A DNA stretch of 64,000 bases from a candidate division FCPU426 bacterium. GTDB taxonomy: Bacteria; Oederibacteriota; Muellerivitia; Muellerivitales; Muellerivitaceae. Below, one piece after another: positions 34,289 through 64,000 of the stretch. The first letter of the stretch is position 1. Every line of letters begins with the position of its first letter. Under the pieces are notes generated by a model that saw nothing but the letters and a program-made list of their open reading frames with translations, was not told where the DNA came from and made no database searches. Made by a program: the position numbers and the translations under genes. Location: positions 128,001 through 192,000 of the forward strand of contig CAVTWJ010000002.1 of assembly GCA_963738405.1 (NCBI GenBank). The letters run 5' to 3'.

Positions 34289-37200
34289 TCAGGGTCCCTC
34301 GATACTAAAGGTCCCCAGCTGCCAGGTATCCCAGATGGCGGTTCCGGTCGAGTTGTACAGTTCCGCCACGAAATTTTGATTGGCGGCGATTTGACCGGGG
34401 GTCAAACCGAACTGGGTGGCCTGGACCGGGATGACGAAACTGGAACAGGTATAGGTGTAGGGGCCCAGCCAGACGTAATTGCCGTTGGTGACATCCACGA
34501 TCCTGATCATGCTGGTCTGGGTCGTACAACCAGGGGTATAGGGATAGACCGTGAAGTTAAACCCGATACTGTTCCCGTCTTCCGCCAAGAAGGTGGCCGG
34601 GCTGGCCAGGCTGGCCGTGTCGATAAAGGCCGGGGGTTCTTCCAAGGTGATGGGCGACCCAGCAGGCGTGCCGTAGGAGAACACCTGGCTCTTGGCTTGG
34701 TTATAAAGGGTCACCGCCAACTGCGCCGGAGCCGGGTTGTTGGCCGTGGTCAATCCCAAATCATAACCTGACAGGGTCACCGTAAAGCTTGACCCCAGGC
34801 CCGTATAACTGAAGGGCCCAACATAGAGGCCGTGATTGTTGGAGTTGTTGTTGACCCATGCGTAACTGACCTGGGTGACCCCGGCGGGAGCGTTGGCGTT
34901 GATCTGCAATTGGAAGGCCTGGCAGGACCCGTTGCCGCCGTCGGTCGTCAGGCAGTTCACGGCGCTGGAGTTCATGTAATCCTGCGGGTATTCCAGGTTG
35001 AGGGTCCCCACGGGCTGGACGTCCCAAACCTGGGTGCCGGTGGAGTCGAGCAGTTGGGCCACGAACTTCTGGTTCAAGGCCGACCCTCCCGGCAGGACTC
35101 CGAATTGGGCGGGAGTCAATGTCCAGCTATAGCTGGTGCAGGTATAGGTAACAGGCCCTAAGGTCACCGAATTGCCGTTGGTGAGATCCCATAACCTTAT
35201 CATGCTCGTCTGGGTCGTCGCGCATGCGGGCGTATAGGGGTAGAGGATAAAGTTGAAGGTATTCAGGTTTCCATCCTCCGCCACCGTTCCGTTGGAAAAG
35301 GCCGTGTAGTCGATATAGGCCGGGGGTGTTTCCAGGGTCACCGGAACGCCTCCCGCCGGGAAGGAAACGCCCAGGGGCTTGGTCTGCGCGGAGTTGTAAA
35401 GCGTCACGGCCATCTGCATGGATACGGGCAGGCTGGCGGTGGACAGGCCCAGTTCCTTGCCCGACAGGGTGACCGAGAAGCTTCCCGTGCCGGTGTAGCT
35501 GAAGGGCCCGATCGTTGTGATGGTGGCATTAAAGGAATTGGCTACATTCGCGTAATTGGTCTCACGCACCCCCGCCGGGCCCTGGGTATTGAGGTTCAAT
35601 TGGAACGCCTGGCAGGCGCCGTTACCGCCGTCGGTCGTGAGGCAGTTAAGCGCGCTGGAAGTAATAAAGGGCGAGGGATTTTCCAGGTTCAGGGTGCCCG
35701 GATACTTCTGATCCAGCAGGGTTACCCCGGTGGAATCGTACAATTGCAAAGCGAAGTTCTGGCTCAAAGCGGTCTGGCCCGCCATCGTCACCCCGAACTG
35801 TTGGGGGGTGAAATAATAGGTATTGTCATCCGCGCCGCCATTGAGGTCGGTGATGGGTCCAAAGGGCACCGTGACCCCGTTCGATAGATCAATCAGCTTC
35901 ATGCGGCTGATCACCGTCGTGGTCCCCGGCGAGGTGAGGTAGGCCACCAGGCCGAAGTCCTCGCAGTTCCCGTCCTCCGCGGTGGTTTGACAGCTGAAGC
36001 TGGCGCTGTTGATGTATTGGAGGGGCGCTTCCAAGGTCATGGGCGAACCCGTGGGAACCGAGGCTCCCTCCGGCTGGGTCTCGTTGTCGTTGTAAAGGGT
36101 CACGGCTAATGCGGTGGAAACCGGCAACCCCGCCGTGGTGAGGCTGAAGGTGGTGCCGGAAATAGTCGCGGCCAAAGAGGCGCTGGGGCCCGAATAGGTC
36201 CAGGGACCCAGCCAGACATTTTTATTATTGGACGTATCCACCACATAGGCGTAACTGGTCTTGGGGTTACCCGCCGGGGCGTTGACGTTGAGTGTCAGCA
36301 ACACCTGCTGCCAGGCGCCGTTGACGGTATCCGTCACGAGCGGGGTCACCGAGCTTCCCGTCAGGTAAAGGGTGGGAGCTTCCAGATTCAGCGTTCCGGG
36401 GTAAACGGTATCGAGAAGCGTGACTCCGCTGGAATCATATAACTGGGCCATGAAAGTCTGGTTCGTAACGATCTGCGCCTGTGCCGTCACGCCAAACTGG
36501 GCGGGCAATAGAGGAAAGCTCGGGTTATAGCCCCCGCCGTTCGTATCCACCAAGGGCGGGAACACCACGGTGGTGGAGTTCGACAGGTCGATCAGCTTCA
36601 CCATCGTGGTGACGGTGGCGCTTCCAGGGGCGTTCACATAGGGGGCGTAATTGAAGGCCTGCCAATTGCCGTCTTCTCCCGTGCTGGTCGGGCTGAAGGT
36701 TCCGTTATTCAAGAAATATTGCAGGGGGGCTTCCATGGTCAGGGGGGAACCCGCCGGAACGGCCTGATCCAGGATATGGGACTTCGTTTGGTCGTAGAGG
36801 GTTACGGCCATGGCGGTGGAAACCGGCAGGTTGGCGGTGGCCAGGCCAAAATCCGTCCCCCGGATGGTCACGGGGAAACTGCCCGTTCCCGTAAAGGTAA
36901 AGGGCCCTTCCTGGAGGGCGGCATGGCCGTTGCTGAGGTCGTATACATTGGCGTAAACCGTACGGGTCACGCCCGCGGGCCCAATGGGGTTCAGGGTGAG
37001 GAGGATGCTCCGGCAGGCGCCCGTGGCGGGGTCATTCACCAGGCAGGAAACGGAAGCGGTATTCAAGTAGGGCGAGGGGGTTTCCAGGTTCAAGGTTCCC
37101 AGGGGATAGCTGTCCAATAACGTCACGCCTCCCGCGTCGGCGTAGAGGTATTCCTCGAACACCTGATTGAGCGCGATCTGACCCGGCGTGCTCATTCCCA

Positions 37201-40200
37201 ATTGCTTGGGCAGAACCAGGAAGGATCCCGAGATGGCCCCGCCATTGGTAGCGGTCACGGGTCCGTAATTGATCGTGAGGGGACCTCCGCTGGCCGTCAG
37301 GTCCACCAGTTTCAGGTAACTGACCACCGTCGGTCCGCTGGGAGAGTTCAAATAATAATTGAAGTTAAATCCTTCGCAGTTCCCGTCATCGGCCGTTGTC
37401 AGGCAGATCACCTCATTGTTGGTGTTGTGGAGGAGGTATTGCTCAGGTGCCTCAAAGGAAACGGGCGAACCGGAGGGGATGGAGGTGTTCAAAACGGTCG
37501 AGTCATTTTCCGCCAGGAGCGTCACCGCGAAGGAAGCGGAGGTGACCGCCCCGGCCGTGTTCAGGCTAAAGTTGAGGCCGCTAAGGGTCGCCGAGGCGCT
37601 TCCGGCGCCGTTAAAGGTAAAGGGGCCCACTGTGGTGTGCGTGTTGTTGGTCAGGTCGGCCACCGAGGCGTAGCAGGTCTTGGTCACTCCCGCGGGGCCC
37701 ACCGGGTTCAGGGTGAGCAGGAACTGCTGGCAAGCGCCGTTCCCGAGATCGGATTGAATACATGAAATCGAACTGGAGGCCAAGTAAGGCGAAGGGGCTT
37801 CCAGGTTCAAGGTGCCCAGGGGATAGGTATCCAACTGCGTCACCCCGCCGGAGTCGGCATAGAGGTATTCCTGGAATTGCTGATTGGACGCGATTTGGCC
37901 GCCCGTGGTCACTCCGAATTGCTGGGCCAGCAGGGTGAAGGAGCCCGAAGTCGCGCCGCCATTGGTATCGGTCACCGGGCCGTAATTAACGGTAATGGGT
38001 CCCCCGGAAGCGGTCAGGTCAACTAGTTTTATATAGCTAATCACGGTGGGGCCGCTGGGGCCGTTCAAATAATAATTGAAGGTGAAGGACTCGCAGTTCC
38101 CGTCCCCGGTTTGGGTTAGGCAGGTCACTTCGTTGTTGGTGTTGTGGAGAAGGAATTGTTCCGGCGCCTCAAAGGAAATGGGTGAGCCCGCGGGGATGGA
38201 GGTATTCAGGACCGTCGTGTCATTGGCCGCCAGAAGGGTGACGGCAAAGGAAGCGGAAGTGACCGCGCCGGCCGTATTGAGGCTGAACTGGTTCCCGTTC
38301 AGGGTGACCGAATAACCGGGCCCGGTGCCGTTAAAGGTGAAGGGGCCCACCGTGGTGTGCGTTTTATTGGTCAGGTCGGCCACCGAGGCATAACAGGTTT
38401 GGTTCACCCCCGCCGGCCCCATGGGGTTCAGGGTGAGCAGGAACTGCTGGCAAGCGCCGTCGCCCAGATCCGTTTGGACGCAAGAGATGGAGCTGGAGGC
38501 CAGGTAGGGCGAAGGCGTTTCAAGGTTCAAGGTCCCCATCGGGTAGGTATCCAACAGCGTCACCCCGCCGGAGTCGGCGTAGAGCAGTTCCTCAAATTGC
38601 TGGTTCAGGGCGATCTGGCCCGGCGTGGTCACCCCGAATTGCTGGGCCAGTATGCTGAAGGTTCCCGAGGTAGACCCGCCGTTGGTATCGGTCACCGCGC
38701 CCGCGCTCACCGTGACAGGTCCCCCGGAAGCCGAAAGGTCGACCAGTTGCAGATAGGTGGTTACGGAAGCGCCGCTGGGCGAAGTCACGTAGTAGTTGAA
38801 ATTGAAGGTCTCACAGTTCCCGTCCTCGGCGACGGTCTGACAGCTCAGGTCGTTGTAGCCAGAGTTGCGGAAGAGGAACTGCGTGGGGGCCACCAAAGAG
38901 ATGGGCGAGCCGGTGGGAATGCCCGTTCCCAATACGGTCACGGGGCTGGTATTGCTGTTGAGGGTCACAGCGAAGGCTTTGGAGGCCGGGGTGGTGGAGG
39001 TGATGCTGAAATCGGAAGCTCTCAATGTGACCGGGAAGGTCGCGGTCACGGGTCCCGAATAGGTGAAGGGCCCCACCGAGACGGATTTATTGTCGGTCAG
39101 GTCGGTCACATAAGCCCAGTCGGTCGATGTCACCGCCCCGGAACTGCCGAGGGTTACGCTTAAGGCGAAGGTCTGGTAACTTCCGCCGGTTCCTGGCAGC
39201 AAGGGGGTAATACCGCTTCCGAGCAAGGTATCAGCCGTGGTCGTATTGTTGTTTTCGAGGCTAAGGGTCCCCACGGGCGAGACGCCCAAAAGCGTCACGC
39301 CGCTGGCATCGTAAAGTTGTTCCGTGAACTGCTGGTTGAGGGCCTCTTGGCCCGCGCTCAAGCCGAAGCTGGCCCCATTCAAGGTTACGGCGTAGGCGTG
39401 ATTGCCCTGGGCATTGCTGACTGGCCCGAAGAAGACAGTCGCCGGGATGGACTGATCGACCAAGGCGTATTCAAAGCTGACCGCAGAGGCGCCGGGGGTG
39501 TCCAGGGTAGTGTTGAAGTTGAAGGTGACGGCGTTGCCGTCCTCGGCCATAACAAGGCTGCTGAAGCTGTTGGAGTAGATGTATCCCAGCGGGGCTTCCA
39601 GCGTGACGGGTGAGCCTAAGGGCGTGGAAGTATCCAGCCAATGGACCTGGGTCTCGTCGTAGAGCTTCACGATGAAATTGGAGGAAACCGGCCCCGAGGC
39701 CGTCGTAAAGTTGAAATCGTTGGTAGAAAGGGTGACCGAGTAGCTGTCCCCCGAGCCCACGTAGGTAATGGGCCCCACCCAGACGGTGGAAGCGTTGGTG
39801 GTGTCGATCACGTCGGCGTAACTGATGGACTGCAGCCCCGTGGGACCGTTGGGGTTGATCGTCATGGCAATAGCCTGATAGGCCCCCGTACCGCTATCGA
39901 AATAAATCGGAGACAAGGAGGTTGAGGCCAGGTAGTTGGCGGGAGTCTCATAGCTAAAGGTCTGGGCTGGCTGTTGATCCAACAGCGTCACACCGCTTGC
40001 GTCAAACAATTGCTCGTAGAACTGCTGATTCATCGCCGTTTGGCCAGGCGTCAGGCCGAAACTGGCCCCGTTCAAGGTGACCGCGTGGGCCGCGTTCCCG
40101 CCGTTGTTGTTCACGAAGGGTCCCAGGGTGAGGGTGACGGGTAAGGGCAAAGCGTTTGAATCGATCAGCTTCACCAGGGTCGTGACTGGGGTGGTGGCGC

Positions 40201-43200
40201 TGAAAGGGGCGTCCAGGTCGGTGTTGTAGGTGAAGTAGGTGCAATTGCCGTCCTCGGCGGTGGTCAAACAGCCGAAGGTGTTGTAACCGGGACCGTAAAT
40301 GAACTCGAGAGGGGCTTCCAAGGAAATCGGCGCCCCCGTAGGCGTGATCGTATCCAGCCATTGGTTCTGCGGGTTGTAGAGCTTGAGGGTAAAGGAGGTG
40401 GAAACGGGCGCCGCGTTGGTGATCAGGCCGAAATTAGACCCATTCATGGTGACGGCGAGGGTGCCGGTGCCCGTGTAGGTCCAGGGGCCGATCTGCGTGG
40501 TGCTGGAGTTTGTGTTGTCCGTCACGATGGCGTAGTTGGAAGAGGGTAGGCCCGGGGGCCCGTTGGTGTTGACGGTCAAGAGGAACCGCTGAACGGCGCC
40601 GTTGCCCGGGTCGGTGGAAAGCACCGACACCGAGGCCGAGCCGAAGTAATTGGCGGGTGTTTCATAACTAAAAGTCTGGGCGGGCATTTGATCCAACAGC
40701 GTCACGCCGCTGGCGTCATACAACTGCTCGTAGAACTGCTGATTGACGGCCGTTTGGCCGGCCGAGAGGCCGAAGCTGGCGCCGTTCAAGGTCACGGCAT
40801 GCCCCGCGTTTCCGCCGTTGTTGTTCACGAAGGGCCCCAGGGTCAGCGTAACCCCGCTGGTCAGGTTCTCCAGTTTCACCAGGGTCGTGACCGGGGTCGT
40901 GGCGCTAAAGGGCGCGTCCAGATCGGTGTTGAAAGTAAATTCAGTGCAGTTCCCGTCTTCGGCGGCCGTCAGGCAGGCGAAGGTGTTGTAGCCGGGCCCA
41001 TAAATGAATTCGGAGGGGGCCTCAAGGGTGATAGGCGCTCCCGTAGGCGTGATCGTATCCAGCCAATGGGCCTCGGTGGAGTCAAAAAGCTTGACGGTGA
41101 AGCCCGTGGAAACCGGCGCCGCGTTGGAGGTCAGGCCGAAACTGGTGCCCATCAAGGTCACCGAGTAGGTGTAGCCCGATCCGGTGTAGGTCCAGGGGCC
41201 CACGAAGGTGGCGGCGCTGTTTTGGTTGTCGATAATCTCGGCGCTGTTGGAACTTTGCTCACCCGTCGGCCCCGTGGCGGAAACCCGCAGGACAAAGCGC
41301 TGAACCGCCCCGTTGCCCGGGTCGGTCGCCAGCACCGACACCGAGGCGGAGGCCAGGTAGGGCGAGGGATATTCGTAACTCAAATTCTGGGCCGGCTGCT
41401 GGTCCAGAATGGTGGTTCCTCCGGCGTCGAGCAATTGTTCCTGAAAGGTCTGGTTCACCGCCGTTTGGCCCGGCGCCAGGCCGAAGCTGGCCGCGTTGAG
41501 CGTGACCGAGTGGCCTTGGTTGCTCCCGTTCGTGTTGACGAAGGGGCCCAGGGTCAGGGTCACGGGTTGAGGGCTGGCGTTGGTGTCGATCAATTTCACT
41601 AGGGTCGTGACCGGCGTGGTAGCGCTAAAGGGCGCGTAAAGGTCGGTGTTGAAAGTGAAATACACGCAGTTGCCGTCCTGGGCGGTGGTCTGACAGCCGA
41701 AGGTATTGTAGGAGGGCCCATAAAGGTACACGGCGGGAGCTTCCAAGGTCAGGGGCGAACCTGAGGGCGTGGAGGAATCGAGAACTAAATTTTGCGCCGC
41801 GTTATAAAGCTTCACGTTGAGGCCGGTGGTAATGGGCGCCGCGTTGGTGGTCAGGCCGAAATAGGATCCGTTCAAGGTCACCGAATAACTGCTTCCCGTA
41901 CCGGTGTAGGTAAAGGGACCCACAATGGTGGAGGCGCTGTTTTTCGTGGCGGTCACCAGGGCGTAGCTGATGGAATTAACCCCCGGCGGGCCGTTGGCGT
42001 TGATGTTCAGGATAAAGGACCGCGTGGCCCCGTTGCCGCTGTCCGTGATAAAGGGCGTGACGGAGGTTCCCGCCAAATAGTCGGTGGGATATTCGTAGCT
42101 CAAGGTCCCGGCTGTGCGGGTATCCATCAGCGTCACGCCGCTGGCGTCATACAATTGCTCCAGGAAGGAATCCCCTACCGCCGCTTGACCGGCGCTCAGG
42201 TTGAATTCGGCCCCGTTGAGGGTGACCGCATAGGCCTGGTTGCCCCCGCCGTTGTTCACGAAGGGCCCCAGGAAAACCGAGACGCCCCTCGTTTGGTCCG
42301 TCAGGACCACCTGGGTGGTCATGGGATTGGACCCCGGGTTGTCCAGGCCCGTATTGAAGGTGAAGAGGGCGCAGTTCCCGTCTTCCGCCAGGGTCTGACA
42401 GCTGAAGCTGTTGCTGTTGATGAACTCTTTCGGGTATTCCAGGGTCAGGGGCGATCCGGCGGGCACATCGGTATCTTGAAGGACGGTTTCCGTCGCGTCG
42501 TAAAGCTTGACGGTGAGGTTGGTGGAAACGGCCGCCGAGTTGGTGGTCAGGCCAAAATCGTTCCCCAGCAGGGTCACCGTATAGCTGTAACCGTTGCCCA
42601 CGTAATTCCAAGGGCCGATCCACATCGTTTGGCCGTTGGTGGTGTCGGTCACCAGGGCGGTCCCCACGGAGGTCACCCCCGCCGGGCCGTCGGCGTCCAC
42701 CGTCAGGGCAAATCCCTGGCAGGCCCCGTTGCCGCTGTCGGACAGCACGCAGGAAGCGGTGCTTCCCGCTAGATAGTTAGCGGCGTATTCATAACTAAAG
42801 GTGCCCGCGTTCTGGTCATCCAGCACCGTCACTCCGCTGGGATCGGTCAAGGTTTCCTCAAAAACATGGTTGGGCGCGGTCTGACCGGGGGTCAAGCCCA
42901 TCAATTCCCCGTCCAAAGTCACGGCGTAGGCCTGGTTGCCCGGGCCGTTGTTCACGAAGGGCCCCAGGTACAGCGTGGCGGGGCCGGTTTGGTCAGTCAG
43001 CCTCACAAACGTGGTCACGGGCGAGGCGGCGGGGTTATTCAAAGTCGTGTTGAAGGTGAAGTATTGGCAGGCGCCGTCCTGCGCGGTCGTGACGCAGTTA
43101 AAGCTGTGGGAATAAATGTATTCGCTCGGGCCCTCCAGGGTCAGGGGGGACCCGGAAGGAATGGAGGTATCGAGAATGGTGTTTTCGGTGGCGTTATAAA

Positions 43201-46150
43201 GCTTCACGGTGAAATTGGCCTGCACCTGGGAAACGGCGCTGGTGATGCCGAAATCTTCCGGCTGGAGGGTGACCGAGAAGCTGTCCCCCGTGCCCGAATA
43301 GTTGATGGGGCCCACCCAATCGGATTGCCCGTTATTGGTGTCGGTCACGAAGGCGTAGCTGGTGGAATTGACGCCCGTCGGACCGTTGGGGTTGATGTTG
43401 AGCAGGAAGGCCCGGCAGGCCCCGTTTCCGGAATCGGACGTGACGCAGGAGAGCGAGCTGGAAGCGATGGAATCGCCCGGGTATTCCAGGTTCAGGGAGC
43501 CGACCATCTTCGAATCCCAAACGGTGGTGCCGGTAGAATCATACAGGTCGGCCCGGAACTGCTGGCTCAAGGCGGGCGGGCCCTGGGTCACGCCCATGGC
43601 CTCCGCGGGGATGGTCCAGGTGAAATTGGTACAGGTATAGGTGACCGGCCCAAACATCGAGGAACTGCCGTTGGAAACGTTGGTGAGCTTCACCATGCTC
43701 ACCTGGGTGGCCGCGCAGGCGGGGGTGTAGGGGTAGATCGTGAAATTGAAGACCGAGCAATTCCCGTCCTCCAGGGTGGTGTTGCAGGCCAGGCTGGTGG
43801 TGTAGATATAGCCCGGAGGCGCCTCCAGGGAGATGGGCGAACCCGAAGGTGTAATCACTCCATAGGTCACGCCCTTGGTGGCGTCCAGAAGGATCACGCT
43901 CAAGTTGGCCGAGACCGGGCTGGAGGTGGAAGTGACCCCGAAGGATTCACCCGAGAGGTTGGCGGTGAAGGTGGTTCCCCCGCCGTTGTAGCCCCAGGGG
44001 CCGACGAAGGCGCTGGTACTGTTGGAGAGGTCCTTGACCAGCGCGTAGCTTTCGGAGTTGAACCCGGTGGGGCCGTTGGCGTTGATGGCCAGTTGAAAGA
44101 CCCTGCAGGCTCCGTCGCCCGCGTCGCTGTTGATACAGGAAACCGCTGCGGAAGAAAGGGAGGGTGTGTTAATAGGTGTGGAACTGGCCGTGGGCGAGGC
44201 GGTGGGGGTGGAGGTGGTTGTCGCCGTCTGGGTGGCCGTCAAGGTGGAGGTCGGGGTGACGGTCATCGTGGCCGTCAGGGTGGCGGTGGCCGTAACCGTA
44301 GAGGTGGAGGTCGCGAGGCTGGTGGCGGTGGCAGTCGGCGACAGGGTCACGGTTGAGGTCACCGTAAAGGTGGAGGTGTTGGAAGCGGTCGGCGTGACAG
44401 AGGGCGTAGCCGTGGGCGATAGGGTAAGGGTGGGGCTGTTCGTGACCGTAGGGGAAAGGGTGATGGTCGGGGTTGAGGTGGCGGTGAAGGTCGAAGTTGA
44501 AGTGGGCGTGTTCGTAATGGTAGGCGAAAGGGTGATGGTGGGGCTGTTCGTGACCGTCGGTGTCAGGGTGGCGGTGGAGGTGGCCGTGGGGGTGGGTGAA
44601 TCCGATCCGGTCGGTGTGGCGGTAGGTGTGCCCGTGGCCGTTGAAGTCGTCGTGGGCGTAGAGGTGGGAGTCGGCGAAAGGGTAATGGTTGGGGTGTTGG
44701 TGGCGGATGCGGACCCTGTCGGGGTGGAGGAGGCCGTAGGCGTTCCGGTGTTGGTGGGCGATGAAGTCACCGTGGGGGTATTGGTAATGGTAGGTGTGAG
44801 GGTGGCCGTTCCGGTGGAAGTGGGAGACGAGGTGATCGTGGGGCTGTTGGTTTTCGTCGGGGAAGAAGTAAACGTTCCCGTTGGTGTGGAAGTGGAAGTA
44901 AATAACGGCGTAGGCGTGCGGGTGGCTGTGGGCGTCGAGGTAAAGGTGGAAGTAGGGCTATTGGTAATCGTAAAGGTCGCGGTACTGGTGGGCGAAAGGG
45001 TGGGGGTTCCGGTATCCGTCCGGGTCGGCGATAAAGTGGGCGTGAAGCTGGGGGTGGGGCTGAAGGTTAGGGTCGGGGAAAGGGTGGGTGTTCCCGTGTT
45101 GGTGGGAGTGGGAGAAAGCGTAGGCGTGGGGGAGAAGGTGGCCGTGGGCGAGTCGGTGGGGGTAAAGGTGTTCGTGGGCACGTTGGTGGGGGATGGCTGA
45201 TGGGTGGGGCAAGTCCCCAGGTTGTCCTGGCTGGTGGGGTCAAAAGCGAAATCGCTGCCCATGTTCCAACGGTAAAAGAACAGGGGTCCGGTAGGCCCCG
45301 GCGGGATCAGGCCGAAGGGCTGGTTGGGATTCACGATTTGCAGCCAGGCGTAGCCGTTGGCGCCCGAAACCCCCAGGGAGACGCAATATACATCCCCCGT
45401 CTGAAGGGTGTTCGGGGAGGCTCCCGCCGCCAGCTTGGAAGCGGTGGAATTGGCCGAGAAAGTGGCGGGTACCGAATCGAAATTCACGATGGGGCCGTTG
45501 CCCATGTAGGCGATGCCGTTGGAACCCAGGGCGGTCAGGGCAAAACCGCCCCCCGACACGCCAATCTGCAGGTCCTGCGATGCCCCCGCGCTGGGGGAAA
45601 GGGCATCCGCTTGGAAGGTGAAATAGGCGTTTCCGCCGTACAAGGAGGTATCCACCACATAGCAGTTGCGGTTCACCGAACCCATGGTGACGGCGATGTC
45701 GCTCACTCCCCCGGCGTTGATGTCCGACAGGGCCGCGCCCATGGCCAGGGCCTGTTGGTTGGAGGGGTTGATCATCTCGAAGGACAAGAGCCTGGCGTTT
45801 CCCTGGGGCACGGCAATATCAAAATCCAGCTCGCCCGATCCCAGGGAAGAGGTCGCGATGGGCCCTGAATTTCCGGTCACCTGGGACATGTTGGGTCCCG
45901 TGATCGAATAAAGAACCTCGTTGGTCGTCACCCCAAGCAGGCTGGACTTGATTTGATTGGTGATGGGAATCGCGACGACGACATTGGCGCCCCGGATGGC
46001 CACCACGGGCATGGTGGGAGAAATTTTTCCTTGGCAGCCCCAAAGGATGGCCAAGCCCGTCAAACCCAGCCCCAACCCGATGAAGGGGATGATTGATTCC
46101 CTTCCCTTCCGGGGGCGCTTGGGCGCTCGGGGTCGGCGGGCCGGGCTCAC
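34289..46150 (-). CDS. Giant (3953 aa) repetitive surface lipoprotein
   Basis: Lipobox LWGC; long Thr/Pro/Ser linker; 14 tandem two-subdomain repeats of ~230 aa. Confidence 0.88.
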   Translation of the reverse strand: MSPARRPRAPKRPRKGRESIIPFIGLGLGLTGLAILWGCQGKISPTMPVVAIRGANVVVAIPITNQIKSSLLGVTTNEVLYSITGPNMSQVTGNSGPIATSSLGSGELDFDIAVPQGNARLLSFEMINPSNQQALAMGAALSDINAGGVSDIAVTMGSVNRNCYVVDTSLYGGNAYFTFQADALSPSAGASQDLQIGVSGGGFALTALGSNGIAYMGNGPIVNFDSVPATFSANSTASKLAAGASPNTLQTGDVYCVSLGVSGANGYAWLQIVNPNQPFGLIPPGPTGPLFFYRWNMGSDFAFDPTSQDNLGTCPTHQPSPTNVPTNTFTPTDSPTATFSPTPTLSPTPTNTGTPTLSPTLTFSPTPSFTPTLSPTRTDTGTPTLSPTSTATFTITNSPTSTFTSTPTATRTPTPLFTSTSTPTGTFTSSPTKTNSPTITSSPTSTGTATLTPTITNTPTVTSSPTNTGTPTASSTPTGSASATNTPTITLSPTPTSTPTTTSTATGTPTATPTGSDSPTPTATSTATLTPTVTNSPTITLSPTITNTPTSTSTFTATSTPTITLSPTVTNSPTLTLSPTATPSVTPTASNTSTFTVTSTVTLSPTATATSLATSTSTVTATATLTATMTVTPTSTLTATQTATTTSTPTASPTASSTPINTPSLSSAAVSCINSDAGDGACRVFQLAINANGPTGFNSESYALVKDLSNSTSAFVGPWGYNGGGTTFTANLSGESFGVTSTSSPVSANLSVILLDATKGVTYGVITPSGSPISLEAPPGYIYTTSLACNTTLEDGNCSVFNFTIYPYTPACAATQVSMVKLTNVSNGSSSMFGPVTYTCTNFTWTIPAEAMGVTQGPPALSQQFRADLYDSTGTTVWDSKMVGSLNLEYPGDSIASSSLSCVTSDSGNGACRAFLLNINPNGPTGVNSTSYAFVTDTNNGQSDWVGPINYSGTGDSFSVTLQPEDFGITSAVSQVQANFTVKLYNATENTILDTSIPSGSPLTLEGPSEYIYSHSFNCVTTAQDGACQYFTFNTTLNNPAASPVTTFVRLTDQTGPATLYLGPFVNNGPGNQAYAVTLDGELMGLTPGQTAPNHVFEETLTDPSGVTVLDDQNAGTFSYEYAANYLAGSTASCVLSDSGNGACQGFALTVDADGPAGVTSVGTALVTDTTNGQTMWIGPWNYVGNGYSYTVTLLGNDFGLTTNSAAVSTNLTVKLYDATETVLQDTDVPAGSPLTLEYPKEFINSNSFSCQTLAEDGNCALFTFNTGLDNPGSNPMTTQVVLTDQTRGVSVFLGPFVNNGGGNQAYAVTLNGAEFNLSAGQAAVGDSFLEQLYDASGVTLMDTRTAGTLSYEYPTDYLAGTSVTPFITDSGNGATRSFILNINANGPPGVNSISYALVTATKNSASTIVGPFTYTGTGSSYSVTLNGSYFGLTTNAAPITTGLNVKLYNAAQNLVLDSSTPSGSPLTLEAPAVYLYGPSYNTFGCQTTAQDGNCVYFTFNTDLYAPFSATTPVTTLVKLIDTNASPQPVTLTLGPFVNTNGSNQGHSVTLNAASFGLAPGQTAVNQTFQEQLLDAGGTTILDQQPAQNLSYEYPSPYLASASVSVLATDPGNGAVQRFVLRVSATGPTGEQSSNSAEIIDNQNSAATFVGPWTYTGSGYTYSVTLMGTSFGLTSNAAPVSTGFTVKLFDSTEAHWLDTITPTGAPITLEAPSEFIYGPGYNTFACLTAAEDGNCTEFTFNTDLDAPFSATTPVTTLVKLENLTSGVTLTLGPFVNNNGGNAGHAVTLNGASFGLSAGQTAVNQQFYEQLYDASGVTLLDQMPAQTFSYETPANYFGSASVSVLSTDPGNGAVQRFLLTVNTNGPPGLPSSNYAIVTDNTNSSTTQIGPWTYTGTGTLAVTMNGSNFGLITNAAPVSTSFTLKLYNPQNQWLDTITPTGAPISLEAPLEFIYGPGYNTFGCLTTAEDGNCTYFTYNTDLDAPFSATTPVTTLVKLIDSNALPLPVTLTLGPFVNNNGGNAAHAVTLNGASFGLTPGQTAMNQQFYEQLFDASGVTLLDQQPAQTFSYETPANYLASTSLSPIYFDSGTGAYQAIAMTINPNGPTGLQSISYADVIDTTNASTVWVGPITYVGSGDSYSVTLSTNDFNFTTASGPVSSNFIVKLYDETQVHWLDTSTPLGSPVTLEAPLGYIYSNSFSSLVMAEDGNAVTFNFNTTLDTPGASAVSFEYALVDQSIPATVFFGPVSNAQGNHAYAVTLNGASFGLSAGQEALNQQFTEQLYDASGVTLLGVSPVGTLSLENNNTTTADTLLGSGITPLLPGTGGSYQTFALSVTLGSSGAVTSTDWAYVTDLTDNKSVSVGPFTYSGPVTATFPVTLRASDFSITSTTPASKAFAVTLNSNTSPVTVLGTGIPTGSPISLVAPTQFLFRNSGYNDLSCQTVAEDGNCETFNFNYYVTSPSGASVTTYLQLVDLSASGGPVTVSAGAVTDTNGGSTSGTFSILAQQFGVTTPGQIALNQQFEELLYADSGGVTLLDTYPMGTLNLETPSPYLASSSISCVQTDLGDGACQQFLLTLNPMGPAGVNQTCYASVADLTNKTHTTVGPFTFNGTGPGYSVTLNGNQFSLNTAGAVTSASFAVTLLAANDTTVLNTSIPAGSPISFEAPEQFLLHNTNNEVTCLTQTGDGNCESFTFNYYLNGPSGPTVISYIKLVDLTASGGPITVNYGPVTDTNGGATSGSFTLLAQQFGVTTGGQIASNQQFQEYLYADSGGVTQLDTYPLGTLNLEAPSPYLASSSISCIQSDLGNGACQQFLLTLNPVGPAGVTKTCYASVADLTNNTHTTVGPFTFNGAGSASATLSGLNFSLNTAGAVTSASFAVTLLAENDSTVLNTSIPSGSPVSFEAPEQYLLHNTNNEVICLTTADDGNCEGFNFNYYLNSPSGPTVVSYLKLVDLTASGGPLTINYGPVTATNGGAISGSFLVLPKQLGMSTPGQIALNQVFEEYLYADAGGVTLLDSYPLGTLNLETPSPYLNTASVSCLVNDPATGACRSILLTLNPIGPAGVTRTVYANVYDLSNGHAALQEGPFTFTGTGSFPVTIRGTDFGLATANLPVSTAMAVTLYDQTKSHILDQAVPAGSPLTMEAPLQYFLNNGTFSPTSTGEDGNWQAFNYAPYVNAPGSATVTTMVKLIDLSNSTTVVFPPLVDTNGGGYNPSFPLLPAQFGVTAQAQIVTNQTFMAQLYDSSGVTLLDTVYPGTLNLEAPTLYLTGSSVTPLVTDTVNGAWQQVLLTLNVNAPAGNPKTSYAYVVDTSNNKNVWLGPWTYSGPSASLAATISGTTFSLTTAGLPVSTALAVTLYNDNETQPEGASVPTGSPMTLEAPLQYINSASFSCQTTAEDGNCEDFGLVAYLTSPGTTTVISRMKLIDLSNGVTVPFGPITDLNGGADDNTYYFTPQQFGVTMAGQTALSQNFALQLYDSTGVTLLDQKYPGTLNLENPSPFITSSALNCLTTDGGNGACQAFQLNLNTQGPAGVRETNYANVANSFNATITTIGPFSYTGTGSFSVTLSGKELGLSTASLPVSMQMAVTLYNSAQTKPLGVSFPAGGVPVTLETPPAYIDYTAFSNGTVAEDGNLNTFNFILYPYTPACATTQTSMIRLWDLTNGNSVTLGPVTYTCTSYSWTLTPAQFGVLPGGSALNQKFVAQLLDSTGTQVWDVQPVGTLNLEYPQDYMNSSAVNCLTTDGGNGSCQAFQLQINANAPAGVTQVSYAWVNNNSNNHGLYVGPFSYTGLGSSFTVTLSGYDLGLTTANNPAPAQLAVTLYNQAKSQVFSYGTPAGSPITLEEPPAFIDTASLASPATFLAEDGNSIGFNFTVYPYTPGCTTQTSMIRIVDVTNGNYVWLGPYTYTCSSFVIPVQATQFGLTPGQIAANQNFVAELYNSTGTAIWDTWQLGTFSIEGP
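44150..45200 (-). repeat. Thr/Pro/Ser low-complexity linker within the giant protein
   Basis: Repeated TxTxSPT / TNTPT units. Confidence 0.9.
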
Positions 46151-59977: not shown

Positions 59978-60361
59978 TTATTGCCCGCTTTTTCCCGCCG
60001 GGCTTCCCAACCCGCCCCCCCGAATGGGGGCCGCGTGGCAGGTCCATTCCACGCTCATGGGGGTGGCAATCCCCAAGGTGACGATGGAACAGAGGGTTTG
60101 CCAAAAATCACGCGTGATCGTCACATCCTGCATTCCGCCCTCGGTGCAATCGGTAACCTGCAGTCCCCCGTCATTCAGGTTTCCCCACAAAAAACTCCAG
60201 GTGGTGGTCTTGCCGTCCCAGGTGGTCACAGGTGTGCTTTGCTTCAGGGAAGGGTCGTTGTTGACGGGAACTTGAACGTGGAATTCGGCGCAGGAGGTAA
60301 ACAAAAGGATGAACATCAGGAGGATTGGAAGTCGCAAAAACAGATTGGGATATTTTTTCAT
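59978..60361 (-). CDS. Bor/Iss-like lipoprotein
   Basis: Lipobox FTSC; SFLWG...C...TLGIATP..VEWTC. Confidence 0.75.
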   Translation of the reverse strand: MKKYPNLFLRLPILLMFILLFTSCAEFHVQVPVNNDPSLKQSTPVTTWDGKTTTWSFLWGNLNDGGLQVTDCTEGGMQDVTITRDFWQTLCSIVTLGIATPMSVEWTCHAAPIRGGGLGSPAGKSGQ

Positions 60362-60487
60362 GGGCTCCCCTTCAAATGTTTAAATCGCAAAAGCAAAATG
60401 ACAAATTACCCGACAGGTTTCAAATCAATTCAATGTTAAGTTTGTGAATTTTCTAAAACTGCACAAAGAATGGCCGGGATTCAATTC

Positions 60488-60616
60488 GAAAACCCGAATC
60501 ACGTTTCCAAAGGTGTTCAACAGATTGAATGTGATGGGGTAGTTGTTTAGAAGAAGGAAGCGATGATTGAATTGAAGGATGATCTGAAGACCCATTTAGT
60601 GAAGGTTAACCTAGTG
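60488..60616 (+). repeat. GH94-like C-terminal fragment, copy D (internal stop)
   Basis: GAAAACCCGAATCACGTTTCCAAAGGTGTTCAAC...GAAGGATGAT...ACCCATTTAGTGAA. Confidence 0.8.
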
Positions 60617-60639
60617 CCACAAACTTATTTTTCCAAAAA

Positions 60640-61566
60640 CTATAAAAGTTTTTTTATCCTCTTACGATAATTTTTAGCCGCTCCAAAATTTAGTTGTCGC
60701 ATATAAGCTGTTTTACCTTGCATTGATTTAAGCTCATTCGAATTAATCGATTTTCCATCAACGAGTTTTTGCTCCATATCTAATAATTGTTTTCGATATT
60801 CTCTCATTTTTTCTTTAGGGACATCAGGGCCATCCGTAACATCAACCCCCGGCGTTATTTTTCTTTCGCCGCTCAAACTCTGAAGAGTTTTTTCTGGATG
60901 CCATGTAAAACCATGATGTTCGATTGTCTTTTTTGCAGATTCGAGCATGTAATCTTTAGTTGAGGGCGGGCCAGATAAGCAGCCATCATCGCCATAAAAA
61001 GTAAATTCACCGTGAAATTTTTCGGCCACCTTTTTCAATTGGGCCGCAACACCATTGCCCTCTCCGTAGGCGATCAAAGCGGCTATTGCCGGACTCGTCA
61101 AAGCGCCCTGAGGTATTTCATCATTAAGGGTGGTTAGCTTTGCTAAACACCAGGCAACTTCCTTTGAAAGCTTCATGGTTTTCTCAAAAAATTTTAGTAC
61201 TCTCGTAAAATGAATACTTGGAAAAAAATCTTTTATATCGATCTTCACTAATACACTTGCACGAAAATGGGGTTTGGCGTTCGTTAAAATGCTTTTCCCT
61301 TTTGACCCGGTTTGCATGTAATCAGGCAAACTCATTCGACCCAAAATTAATTTTATCTTTTTTTGTAACTCTCTTAAATTTTTATTCGGATTAGATATCT
61401 TCCGCAATTTCCCTGATTTTTTTGGCTCGAATTTAATCCGATAATGCTTCCCTGTGTTGTCACAAATCCATCGCAATTGTTTTGGCGAAATGCCAAGAAA
61501 TGAACTCAATTCGTCAATCGAAGAGATGCTAATTTTTGTTTCATCGGAAGGAAGGTGGCTAAACAA
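60640..61566 (-). CDS. Retron-like reverse transcriptase
   Basis: PKKSGKLRKI, NAKPH (retron region X), DIKDFFPSI, PQGALTSP, YGDD, HPEKT, TPG at the VTG position. Confidence 0.9.
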   Translation of the reverse strand: MFSHLPSDETKISISSIDELSSFLGISPKQLRWICDNTGKHYRIKFEPKKSGKLRKISNPNKNLRELQKKIKLILGRMSLPDYMQTGSKGKSILTNAKPHFRASVLVKIDIKDFFPSIHFTRVLKFFEKTMKLSKEVAWCLAKLTTLNDEIPQGALTSPAIAALIAYGEGNGVAAQLKKVAEKFHGEFTFYGDDGCLSGPPSTKDYMLESAKKTIEHHGFTWHPEKTLQSLSGERKITPGVDVTDGPDVPKEKMREYRKQLLDMEQKLVDGKSINSNELKSMQGKTAYMRQLNFGAAKNYRKRIKKLL

Positions 61567-61774
61567 AACAAACGTCTCCGTTTTCCAACATATAGTTATT
61601 GATTATGGAATCCCACGCCGCCAATAACTCCGCCACCCACTTGATAACCCCCATCCCCTTGAAAAGAGCTGGAAGGATAAATAGGTAGGGCTTTAATAGC
61701 TGTCGGACCCGCCTTGAAGTACTTTCCCTTGAAACTTTTAACAAGGATTTCCTTCGGTTCGTCCTTTTGGCCAT
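61559..61774 (-). CDS. 71-aa basic/hydrophobic orphan protein, candidate RT-system effector
   Basis: AAAGGGGGTG RBS; stop overlaps the RT start; Arg/Lys-rich N-terminus then hydrophobic helix. Confidence 0.65.
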   Translation of the reverse strand: MAKRTNRRKSLLKVSRESTSRRVRQLLKPYLFILPALFKGMGVIKWVAELLAAWDSIINNYMLENGDVCFV

Positions 61775-61789
61775 GCTGATCACCCCCTT

Positions 61790-62095
61790 TGCATTAATTC
61801 GTGGACGTCAGGCGGACCGATTCGGAGTAAATAATCGGCTCCATAAATAACTAAATTCGCATTTTTCATGCGATTCAATTTTCTTAATAAGAACAAGAAA
61901 ATCTAAGAAATCAAGATTCTAAACTTTTAACCCATTGCCCAAAGATGCAAGGAGCAATAAAGAAGAACCAAGACTCTAGAACCACCGGCAATTGTTTCAA
62001 AAAAAATGGCAACCGGGGGGGTCTGTACGGTGGGGTGATTAACACCCATGTCCACTTCGGGGTGAGGCCTTTGCCTCCTTTCGAATTCTAAAATG
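61790..62095 (-). ncRNA. Candidate RT-associated ncRNA (msr/msd-like)
   Basis: End pairing AATTC+GTGGAC / GTCCAC+GAATT enclosing several hairpins, directly upstream of the small ORF and RT. Confidence 0.55.
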
Positions 62096-62224
62096 CTAAA
62101 TTTAATTTAAGGCGAGATGAATTTATTAACAAGGGGTTGGGATGTTTTAAAAAAAACGTCAAAAATGCGGAATTTTCACAAACAAGGGGGCAAGGCCCCT
62201 ATTTTATTCACAACGCAAATGGGT

Positions 62225-62824
62225 TTATTTCGGATGCACTGTAAAATTACTCCTGTTTTTTACTCGCCCGATTTTAGGAACATCACCTTTTGAAATACTT
62301 TTTAACAATTTTTTCAACTCATTAGATTGGCCATAAAAAACTTCGCCAGTCGATAATTGGACAAAAGCCCATCTTGCTTTAAAGAAGTCCCCAAGTGCAT
62401 AAAACCTAATGGGAATGCTAGCAAAAAACTCAGTTCTGCTTTCCAAAACTACCGGCCAATCCAAATCCTTTTGCAACCGGTTAAAAACCCTATTAGGTAT
62501 TTCTGCCGGAAATCTCGCCATATTCTTTTTCGCCTCAATTAACCCTACCATACGAACTTGAACCGGAAATGAAGATTTATTCACGATTTCCAAAATAACC
62601 TCAGTACTCATTTCTTCCTTTTGGGGTTTCCCGCCTTTTTCCCCGACAACAGTGACCGATATTAGGTGTGGTTTTATTAAAACTTTCGCTTTGTCCTTGT
62701 TTCGGTTATAGAAAAAATTAGCAAGACTCAACACAAACCCAAACCAAGCAGCCAGCATTGTTAGTATTCCTAAAACAATAGTTAAAATATCTTTCAGGGA
62801 TATGTCAGAAATGGTAAAGGTCAT
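62225..62824 (-). CDS. Hypothetical protein with N-terminal TM
   Basis: 199-aa ORF, AT-rich. Confidence 0.65.
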   Translation of the reverse strand: MTFTISDISLKDILTIVLGILTMLAAWFGFVLSLANFFYNRNKDKAKVLIKPHLISVTVVGEKGGKPQKEEMSTEVILEIVNKSSFPVQVRMVGLIEAKKNMARFPAEIPNRVFNRLQKDLDWPVVLESRTEFFASIPIRFYALGDFFKARWAFVQLSTGEVFYGQSNELKKLLKSISKGDVPKIGRVKNRSNFTVHPK

Positions 62825-62828
62825 CTTT

Positions 62829-63302
62829 TTAGTCCTTCAGTTTTTTGAGAAAACCAGAAATCTTTTCAGGCGACGTCCAATTACCACCCATTTGGCCGAA
62901 TTGGATAATTGGCTCGGAGGACCCATCCTTCATCACCCGAAAAATAGTTAGTGAATGCGGTTTTCGTGGAAACATAGAGCCGAGGAACGAAGCAACTCTA
63001 CCTGGAAAATCTGTTTTATTCCAAGTCAACGAAAAGGCTTCCGGCCCCTCTTCAAAAGGAATCACTCCATAGGCATAATCACCTTCAGGCGCCTCTTTCA
63101 TAATTCTTTTCCAATGGACTTCCAATTCATCAACAAAACGCTTTTTTTCTATGGGGTGGTCAAAATCTTCTCTTAAGTACTTGGAAGTCACATTTTCCTT
63201 AAAGCCACAAATACATTGGCCAAAATACTTAATGCCTTCCTCATCCCCACCTGAATAAACCGTTAGTTCTCTACCACACCGTTCACAAATGTACTTGTCC
63301 AT
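62829..63302 (-). CDS. Hypothetical protein with N-terminal Cys cluster
   Basis: CERC...CIC; GGAGAGG RBS. Confidence 0.65.
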   Translation of the reverse strand: MDKYICERCGRELTVYSGGDEEGIKYFGQCICGFKENVTSKYLREDFDHPIEKKRFVDELEVHWKRIMKEAPEGDYAYGVIPFEEGPEAFSLTWNKTDFPGRVASFLGSMFPRKPHSLTIFRVMKDGSSEPIIQFGQMGGNWTSPEKISGFLKKLKD

Positions 63303-63371
63303 TTAACCTCTCCAAAAAACAAAAGCGTAATCTTCTATGTTATCCAAGTGTCTTAGCCCGCCTACTAGAAA

Positions 63372-64000
63372 CTAGGATAACAGCCACTCCAGTTCCTCCC
63401 GTTTTAAGCCGCTCAAGAAACCTTTCTCACTCCCAAAAACAGCCTTGGCCAGTTTCCGCTTTTTCGCCTGCATCTCCAATATTTTCTCTTCCACCGTGCC
63501 CCGGGTGATGAGCCGATAGGCAAAAACATGCCGGGTCTGGCCGATGCGGTGGGCGCGGTCCATAGCTTGGGCCTCCACCGCCGGGTTCCACCAGGGGTCC
63601 AGCAGGTACACGTAATCCGCTGATGTTAGGTTAAGCCCAAGGCCGCCCGCCTTGAGGCTGATGAGGAAAAGTTTGCACTCGTCATCTTCCTGAAACCTTC
63701 TCACCTGCTCTTCCCTATCCCGGCTTTTACCGTCGAGATAGGCAGTGCCTAAATTCAAGGGCGCGAGGTGTTTACGGAAGATGGAAAGGAAAGAAGTGAA
63801 TTGGGAAAACACCAGTACCTTGTGCCCCTCAGACAAGACTTCCTGCAACTGGGGTATAAGCATTTCCAACTTGGCGCCCAAAAGATGTTTCTGGGCGGAA
63901 TCCACCAAACCCGGATGGCAGGCCACCTGGCGAAGCCTCAAGAGCGCTTCGAGGACGTGCATCTTCGATTTGTTTAAGCCTTGGCTCTCCACTTTTTCCA
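63372..64000 (-). CDS. SNF2-family helicase, C-terminal part (truncated by window)
   Basis: [53 protein letters not shown]. Confidence 0.95.

Follow-up and report, generated by a model that had tools for sequence, protein, structure and literature searches.

The window analysed here is a stretch of 64,000 nucleotides (nt) from a candidate division FCPU426 bacterium (contig CAVTWJ010000002.1). Its minus strand carries a reverse transcriptase (RT) gene preceded by a 71-codon open reading frame (ORF) and a gene-free leader. We discuss these elements as a possible variant of the type VI retrons, in which a non-coding RNA, a small protein (SP), a helix-turn-helix (HTH) protein and the RT are encoded in that order (Mestre et al. 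2020, PMC7736814; Zhang et al. 2025, bioRxiv 10.1101/2025.10.22.683967; Garcia-Rodriguez et al. 2026, bioRxiv 10.64898/2026.04.27.721009). The features of the locus, including the Shine-Dalgarno (SD) sequences and their possible pairing partners, are as follows.

60640 to 61566, minus strand: RT gene, 308 amino acids (aa) with a TTG start; NAKPH at residues 96-100, YGDD at 191-194 and (K)ITPG at 236-240
61575 to 61579, minus strand: SD of the RT, GGAGA, 8 nt before the TTG and within the 3' end of the 71-codon ORF
61559 to 61774, minus strand: 71-codon ORF with an ATG start and an in-frame GTG at 61783; candidate gene for an SP-like toxin
61780 to 61789, minus strand: extended SD of the 71-codon ORF, AAGGGGGTGA, the core of which ends 8 nt from the ATG
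61775 to 62224, minus strand: leader without genes, 450 nt long, which may be the non-coding RNA of the retron or the part of a hybrid RNA that does not code for protein
62059 to 62065, minus strand: first of two exact anti-SD copies, reading TCACCCC in the RNA and complementary to the SD of the 71-codon ORF
62032 to 62044, minus strand: second anti-SD copy, an inverted repeat within a 13-nt tract complementary to 61774-61786, which also forms a local hairpin
62130 to 62141, minus strand: C-rich 5' tract with inverted repeats, its partner being either the SD (61781-61789) or a G-rich tract (61650-61661)
61593 to 61853, minus strand: alternative placement of the non-coding RNA, from the minimum-free-energy fold of 61575-61870; overlaps the 71-codon ORF

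The 71-codon ORF ends in a TAG stop (61559-61561) and overlaps the RT start (TTG, 61564-61566), as the initial annotation of this DNA had stated. This overlap of stop and start, together with the location of the SD of the RT inside the ORF, is the normal layout of coupled genes. The leader runs from the ORF to the stop of a gene for a 199-aa protein, behind which a terminator-like hairpin was observed (62185-62200), and it was counted as 450 nt because no ORF in 61775-62224 has a family match. The locus lies in a low-GC island (about 60400-63350) with a GC content of 0.34-0.44 against 0.50-0.61 on either side, and the island also holds the genes of the 199-aa protein and of a 157-aa protein on the same strand as the RT.

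Judged by its sequence, the 308-aa protein is a retron-type RT with its catalytic aspartates intact. The best PADLOC model was RT_VI (E 1.8e-63, 212.5 bits) followed by RT_III-A (184.9 bits), and all 25 PADLOC matches listed, which are the best 25 of the 44 families matched, are retron RT models. An identity as a DRT/UG, Abi or group II intron RT was rejected on the same listed matches, and the NCBIfam scores for Drt3a (18.7 bits) and group II RT (23.8 bits) are far under their cut-offs. The NCBIfam retron models also match the protein only below threshold, while Pfam RVT_1 matches at 1.7e-13. Six sequences in the PDB were matched at E <= 1e-10, every one of them a retron RT (Ec86, Ec67, Kva2), with the RT of retron Ec86 giving the best match (1.6e-16).

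Retron RTs are recognised by region X, an NAxxH motif between RT2 and RT3 with the histidine most conserved, and by region Y, a VTG triplet in RT7 with the glycine most conserved (Mestre et al. 2020). Residues N96, A97 and H100 of region X, and the aspartates D193 and D194 of the YxDD box, were found to be invariant across a seven-sequence alignment, and the region X histidine is kept in 66 of 67 aligned retron-like RTs. Among these 67 sequences the catalytic box is YADD in 52 and YGDD in five, namely the RT of the window, its close relatives P0002 and P0003, and the RTs of two more distant loci (L066 and L072) that have the canonical type VI gene order. Region Y reads VTG in 48, ITG in 11, TPG in three and otherwise in five. 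The TPG of the window (238-240) aligns to VTG with only G240 retained, and this residue is invariant in the seven-sequence alignment. The motifs, the length and the TTG start given in the initial annotation were all confirmed in the sequence, and its assignment of the protein to the retron RTs is borne out by the PADLOC and PDB matches and by the NAxxH motif. Its view of the motifs as atypical holds for TPG, which is confined to the clade of the window; YGDD is a minority variant and is not unique. A full-text literature search for retron and YGDD together returned no paper.

Close relatives of the RT are few. A search of 5.8 billion clustered proteins returned only P0002 (86% identity) and P0003 (73%), both metagenomic and both with YGDD and TPG, and the next match was at 33%. 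In contigs representing one genome per species, 422 RT relatives were confirmed, the best at 33-35% identity, and a tblastn search of plasmids and phages gave nothing over 32%. In a 67-row tree the window RT, P0002 and P0003 form a clade (support 100) that is sister to L001 and L002 (SH-aLRT 91). The same sister grouping was observed in a 30-row tree of hand-picked representatives rooted with a type V RT (UFBoot 94, SH-aLRT 91), again with a support of 100 for the window clade. Sixteen of the 80 fetched loci, mostly near-identical Collinsella/Coriobacteriaceae matches plus L056, were left out of the trees at first and four more (L024, L029, L068 and L077) when the 67-row tree was made; all 20 are at most 33% identical to the query and were chosen without a test. 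The stem branch of the window clade is long (1.1 changes per column), and the support values therefore overstate the certainty of its exact placement. The RT_VI match and the sister position to L001 and L002, in trees in which the experimentally typed type VI RTs (Vpa2 and Sen3) are not represented, assign the RT to the type VI branch within retron clade 3.

The effector of type VI retrons is a small helical SP which is encoded beside or inside the template RNA. The SP is a toxin, and its ribosome-binding site (RBS) is masked within a structured transcript which contains the RT template as well, while the HTH protein restrains reverse transcription in Retron-Vpa2 and the toxin itself in Retron-Sen3 (Zhang et al. 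2025; Garcia-Rodriguez et al. 2026). The SP toxins have a conserved two-helix core, and the HTH gene ends at or overlaps the RT start (Garcia-Rodriguez et al. 2026). We inspected the seven loci nearest to the window in the tree (L001, L002, L003, L005, L066, L072 and L076). In all seven an HTH_3 gene lies directly upstream of the RT (Pfam E 5.8e-16 to 3.8e-11), and an ORF of 74-154 aa without a family match lies upstream of the HTH_3 gene. As read from the sequences, this gene order is the canonical SP-HTH-RT order of type VI.

Two of these loci have overlapping genes: in L001 (2694-3294) and L002 (3362-3965) about 100-190 nt are shared between the SP-like ORF and the HTH ORF, which are read in different frames, and the two SP-like products are 35% identical to each other. 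The RTs of L005, L066 and L076 have RT_III-A rather than RT_VI as their best PADLOC model despite their type VI gene order, and best-model typing of such short RTs is therefore unreliable near type boundaries.

Since the best model of the window RT is RT_VI and the RT groups with canonical SP-HTH-RT loci, it largely falls into a characterised retron type with a known effector. A leader, a small protein and an RT are the core of type VI retrons, so the earlier suggestion of a possibly new subtype or unrecognised architecture does not stand.

The window locus departs from type VI in two respects, in that it lacks the HTH gene and its small ORF matches no known SP. A Cro/C1-type HTH gene of 91-110 aa upstream of or overlapping the RT is a criterion of type VI, and no such gene was found here. 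The 71-codon ORF matched 0 Pfam families at E <= 10, its comparison with an HTH profile by hhalign gave a probability of 0.7%, and a profile of the HTH proteins of the seven relatives detected no HTH among 88 six-frame pieces of 60300-63400 (best E 1.3). HTH-bearing loci flank the window clade on both sides in the rooted 30-row tree, so that a loss of the HTH gene in the window lineage is the parsimonious, inferred reading, the absence itself being known from the window locus alone. The explanation that we favour, and whose truth we regard as evenly balanced, is that the locus is a divergent offshoot of the type VI retron lineage which has lost its Cro/C1 HTH gene and in which the 71-codon ORF acts as an SP-like toxin.

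The same absence could mark a decaying type VI remnant, in which a deletion took the SP and HTH genes, the RT no longer serves a defence system and the ORF and leader are leftovers. The missing HTH of all seven inspected relatives, the long stem branch, the alteration of two conserved RT motifs and the lack of relatives of the 71-codon ORF are consistent with such decay. We nevertheless consider it improbable. The RT is not truncated and retains NAxxH, the two catalytic aspartates and the conserved glycine, and since it is conserved with YGDD and TPG in two further metagenomic lineages (86% and 73% identity), selection appears to have acted on a working RT after the motif changes. No trace of an HTH pseudogene was seen in any frame, and a strong SD with matching anti-SD tracts would be unexpected under decay.

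In the type VI offshoot proposed here, the toxin would be the product of the 71-codon ORF. As previously described, this product has a basic N-terminus and a hydrophobic stretch; here 11 K/R were counted in the first 28 residues, and the hydrophobic stretch was placed at approximately residues 26-54. The single-sequence AF2 model predicts a two-helix hairpin (5-37 and 43-65) with a pLDDT of 67, and the gene call of the sequence database itself is the 71-aa form of the ORF (P0009). The SD of the ORF has a duplex energy with the anti-SD motif of -13.4 kcal/mol, compared with -11.2 to -14.6 kcal/mol in six of the seven SP-like genes of the relatives and -7.1 in the seventh, and its SD context resembles theirs. 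Two further ORFs in the leader, 61911-62045 (which has no family match) and 61927-62055, were considered as SP candidates and rejected, the SD spacing being unusable in both.

No family was found for the 71-aa product in Pfam, PADLOC, NCBIfam or PHROGs, a search of the ESM Atlas gave no lead (best score 0.80), tblastn against the 80 fetched loci gave a best E of 0.46, and Foldseek of the model against the PDB gave 0 matches at E <= 0.001. An apparent homologue, P0010, is spurious: it is a 689-aa tandem-repeat translation whose score sums seven repeats. The product matches no known SP or other protein, in line with the earlier statement that it is unlike any described effector. A complex prediction of the RT with the 71-aa product scored 0.00 and gives no evidence either way. 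A tiny toxin, as had been proposed from the sequence at first, would still be the most plausible effector of this locus.

The charge of the 71-aa product deserves separate consideration. Over the first 30 residues it has a net charge of +10, whereas the SP-like proteins of the seven relatives range from -2 to +1. In addition, the ORF occupies the exact slot of the HTH gene, with its end at or overlapping the RT start. The 71-aa protein might therefore be a non-homologous replacement of the HTH, an arginine-rich RNA- or DNA-binding regulator or antitoxin, with the toxic part encoded elsewhere or supplied by the complementary DNA (cDNA) or RNA itself. This seems very improbable to us: neither HTH similarity nor a PDB fold match was detected in the searches above, the coding status of the ORF is equally doubtful under it, and the SD context is like that of SP-like genes, in a comparison that covers SP-like and not HTH genes.

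For the SP-like toxin reading, the leader is of interest because of its complementarity to the SD. The sequence GGGGTGA or its complement occurs three times within 61780-62065 (286 nt) and 23 times in the whole window, and about 0.1 copies would be expected in 286 nt at the window-wide density by a post hoc estimate. Read on the RNA, one of the three is the SD and the other two are anti-SDs. The four core guanines of the SD are predicted to be paired with probabilities of 0.75-0.99 in three transcript models. The mean pairing probability of this SD is 0.84 against 0.64-0.85 for the SP SDs of the seven relatives, although G-rich motifs tend to be predicted as paired anyway; the RT SDs give 0.13-0.74. 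The best partner of the SD depends on the transcript start, being the anti-SD at 62059-62065 (probability about 0.6) in the model starting at 62110 and the C-rich tract at 62130-62141 in the models starting at 62150. The 13-nt tract at the second anti-SD copy has its complement in 61774-61786, which extends from the SD to the first base of the ATG. The C-rich tract is also complementary at 11 of 12 positions to the G-rich tract at 61650-61661 inside the ORF, and on its own it is estimated to be not above chance. The 7-mer CCTTGAA (TTCAAGG on the RNA strand) was observed three times within 77 nt of the ORF (61657-61733), twice as a 9-mer, and these copies may be a protein-binding or structural RNA repeat, or chance.

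Two placements of the template RNA were considered. The first is in the leader, as in type VI retrons (61775-62130, with the C-rich tracts 62130-62141, 62059-62065 and 62032-62044). For the leader 61775-62130 the fold has z = -1.98 (equalled by 1 of 100 shuffles), and local windows across 62020-61811 gave z of about -1.6 to -2.2. The second is directly upstream of the RT, as in canonical retrons, where the fold of 61575-61870 (z = -1.56, 15 of 200 shuffles) contains a bipartite 14-bp closing stem (61840-61853 / 61593-61609), a G at 61839 after this stem and a hairpin of about 100 nt (approximately 61610-61710), as predicted from a single sequence. The hairpin window 61601-61720 has z = -1.83, and the stems of this placement are also seen as inverted repeats. 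A 606-nt stretch gave z = -0.91 (4 of 20 shuffles). No individual stem exceeds chance by our estimates in either placement. Rfam gave no family in the region at E <= 1 and none in the whole window at gathering scores, and a blastn comparison of leader and ORF with the sequences upstream in L001-L003 returned only chance 8-12-mers. The initial annotation had called the leader a structured region of about 300 nt; the gene-free region is there, its length is 450 nt, and with z values of -1.98, -1.56 and -0.91 the structure is weakly supported.

By analogy with Retron-Vpa2, the locus may work as follows. A single transcript from the leader would carry both the RT template and the 71-codon ORF, and the C-rich anti-SD tracts in the leader would keep the very strong SD paired, so that the basic hydrophobic toxin peptide is not made. 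Upon phage infection, cDNA made by the RT would accumulate. A cDNA copy of one anti-SD tract would be identical in sequence to the SD and might compete with it for pairing to the other, which would free the SD, allow the peptide to be translated and stop the infected cell (abortive infection). Since there is no HTH antitoxin, control in this proposal would rest on RNA alone.

Several observations weigh against this interpretation. Both characterised type VI retrons need the HTH to escape self-toxicity, and an HTH-less system is therefore not obviously viable by the same mechanism. The fold z-scores are modest, and the RNA pairings all come from one sequence, without covariation. Furthermore, the sole promoter-like site of the leader on this strand (62000-61973) would place the transcript start downstream of both anti-SD copies; shuffles yield such sites at least as often. 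The 71-aa ORF was the only match to itself in a word-based search of the 5.8 billion clustered proteins, and phmmer against 1.84 billion representatives added only the tandem-repeat artefact, whereas for both the RT and the 199-aa protein these databases contain a relative at 86% identity. Profile comparisons and tblastn showed no similarity of the ORF to the SP-like proteins of the relatives.

The coding potential of the ORF points in the same direction. A codon model trained on the RT, or on the RT and its neighbours, ranks the ORF frame worst or second-worst of the three, with a score of -0.02 against +0.14 to +0.18, and the GC content at third codon positions is 0.54 against 0.35-0.39 in the neighbours. 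The controls behaved as expected of genes: the SP-like and HTH genes of L001-L003 were best in frame in 6 of 6 cases, as was every 71-codon window of three real neighbouring genes. An ORF of at least 71 codons was found on this strand in 333 of 2000 shuffles of 61540-62224. As the length matches chance and the codon signature of the neighbours is missing, the status of the ORF as a protein is doubtful, and we regard it as about equally likely that it is a translated, functional gene and that it is not. The ORF itself, which the initial annotation described as a 71-aa protein, is present; its doubtful coding status by shuffles and codon test was overlooked there, as were the orphan genes at 62225-63302 in the same island.

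These results lend themselves to another explanation, in which the 71-codon ORF is a chance ORF inside an msr-msd RNA (61593-61853) and the effector lies elsewhere, most plausibly in the 157-aa/199-aa pair, or there is no dedicated effector. The codon test with its passing controls, the non-significant length and the lack of a homologue all favour it. So does the fold of 61575-61870, with a G following its 14-bp bipartite stem and the hairpin of about 100 nt beside the 3' arm, and so does the location of the 157-aa and 199-aa genes in the low-GC island and on the strand of the RT, with the 199-aa protein under purifying selection. A non-coding RNA would, however, leave the near-perfect extended SD with its optimal spacing, as found for the SP-like genes of 7/7 relatives, to coincidence, and the stop/start overlap with the RT and the SD of the RT inside the ORF are the usual layout of coupled genes. 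In addition, the fold has a z of only -1.56 with AU-rich stems that are not above chance, and between the 199-aa gene and the retron lie the terminator-like hairpin and 450 nt. No PADLOC model matches either orphan protein at E < 1e-3, and the relative of the 199-aa protein (P0012) is on a different contig (1210 bp) from P0002, so that linkage in the relative is without support. We therefore regard a chance ORF as possible but doubtful.

A narrower form of the toxin reading, which we hold to be rather unlikely, is a minimal two-gene retron. Here the template RNA of the RT would also encode the orphan, arginine-rich, hydrophobic 71-aa toxin, restrained, now that the HTH antitoxin is gone, only by an RNA switch in which duplicated anti-SDs hold the SD and cDNA synthesis opens or closes it. 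Should the template and the ORF overlap (61593-61853), reverse transcription together with RNase H would instead destroy the toxin mRNA; the RT would then be the antitoxin, and inhibition of the RT by a phage would be the trigger. In this arrangement the TPG change in the RNA-directing region of the RT would mark co-evolution with the rearranged RNA.

The two orphan genes upstream of the leader (62225-63302, minus strand) are co-oriented and 4 nt apart within the low-GC island of the retron. The 157-aa protein has a Cys-rich N-terminus (CxxC ... CxC), and the N-terminus of the 199-aa protein is predicted to form a membrane helix (residues 10-45). Neither gave an above-threshold match in Pfam, PADLOC or PHROGs or anything meaningful in sequence searches of the PDB, and the 157-aa protein drew no lead from the ESM Atlas. 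For the 199-aa protein the AF2 model (pLDDT 50) is too poor for a fold search. This protein has P0012 (86% identity) as its single relative, and it was found to be under purifying selection. The pair could be an unrelated cargo module or the real effector of the retron.

Beyond the island, positions 63372-64000 (minus strand, continuing past the window edge) encode the last 208 aa of a helicase of the SNF2 type (Pfam Helicase_C, 3.6e-22). Among PADLOC models, this fragment matches those for DpdE strongly (1.6e-64) and those for ZorD, DrmD and BrxH less strongly. It suggests that a second defence system adjoins the retron island. On the other side, just outside the island, a 127-aa ORF with a hydrophobic N-terminal segment (59978-60361, minus strand) has a sub-threshold match to the phage lambda Bor lipoprotein PF06291 (E 4.5e-4, 20.7 bits against a cut-off of 25). 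Farther away, a 3953-aa ORF (34289-46150, minus strand) has a weak match to the cyanophage baseplate plug Pam3_gp18 (2.8e-08) as its sole Pfam match.

The architecture itself is known: it was described in 2020, and its mechanism was worked out in 2025-26. The locus is new as a variant that lacks the HTH and has an orphan small ORF and a changed region Y, and is thus an unusual form of a known system. This novelty is judged on main-text passages of the two preprints, whose supplements (covariance models, repeat sequence, trees) may already cover such variants. The control of the small toxin differs between the characterised systems, being translational in Vpa2 and post-translational through the HTH in Sen3, and the HTH is vital in both (Zhang et al. 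2025; Garcia-Rodriguez et al. 2026). A conserved RT without the HTH poses the question of whether RNA-level control alone can hold such a toxin. An HTH is present in about 78% of 158 type VI entries and absent from about 22%, and the main-text passages considered here do not characterise the HTH-less ones (Garcia-Rodriguez et al. 2026); the window raises the question of whether this part of type VI works differently. A compact RT and RNA module with altered RNA-recognition and catalytic motifs would also serve retron engineering. If the 71-codon ORF is non-coding, the locus would be an orphan RT with an uncharacterised RNA and of little wider interest.

Small hydrophobic peptides repressed through mRNA folding are familiar from type I toxin-antitoxin modules (hok/sok-like). 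The proposal made here resembles these modules in its small basic hydrophobic peptide and in an SD blocked by intramolecular pairing. It differs from them in that no antisense RNA is evident, the release signal would be the cDNA of the RT and there is no sequence relationship.

Canonical retrons such as Ec86 share the NAxxH of region X with the window and provide the best sequence match among solved structures. Their msr-msd lies directly upstream of the RT (Mestre et al. 2020), where the window has a possible a1/a2 stem, branching G and long hairpin. The window differs from them in having TPG for VTG, a candidate msd that overlaps an ORF with a strong SD, and no adjoining effector gene of a class described in PADLOC.

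Another near system is the Retron-Sen3/cl2075 lineage of type VI. Retron-Sen3 relies on the HTH as antitoxin and RT partner, which the window lacks, and its SP of 79 aa belongs to a conserved cluster whereas the window ORF is an orphan. The lineage has a structured RNA within a few hundred nt of the start of the small ORF with the RBS in a basal stem, a long-range pairing between the leader and the coding region of the small ORF, and a two-helix core of the small protein (Garcia-Rodriguez et al. 2026); each of these has a predicted counterpart in the window, the candidate for the long-range pairing being 62130-62141 with 61650-61661.

Retron-Vpa2 of Vibrio parahaemolyticus is the model for the mechanism proposed above. 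It has an HTH gene between the small ORF and the RT where the window has none, and YADD where the window has YGDD together with TPG. The small ORF of the window has 71 aa, a very basic N-terminus and no detectable homology. Shared by the two are the succession of a non-coding RNA (a candidate in the window), a small ORF and an RT on one strand, the hydrophobic C-terminal part of the small protein, an RBS and a start codon, both belonging to the small ORF, that are predicted to be paired within the same transcript, and short direct repeats, in the window the two TCACCCC copies, whose reverse transcripts could open the RBS (Zhang et al. 2025).

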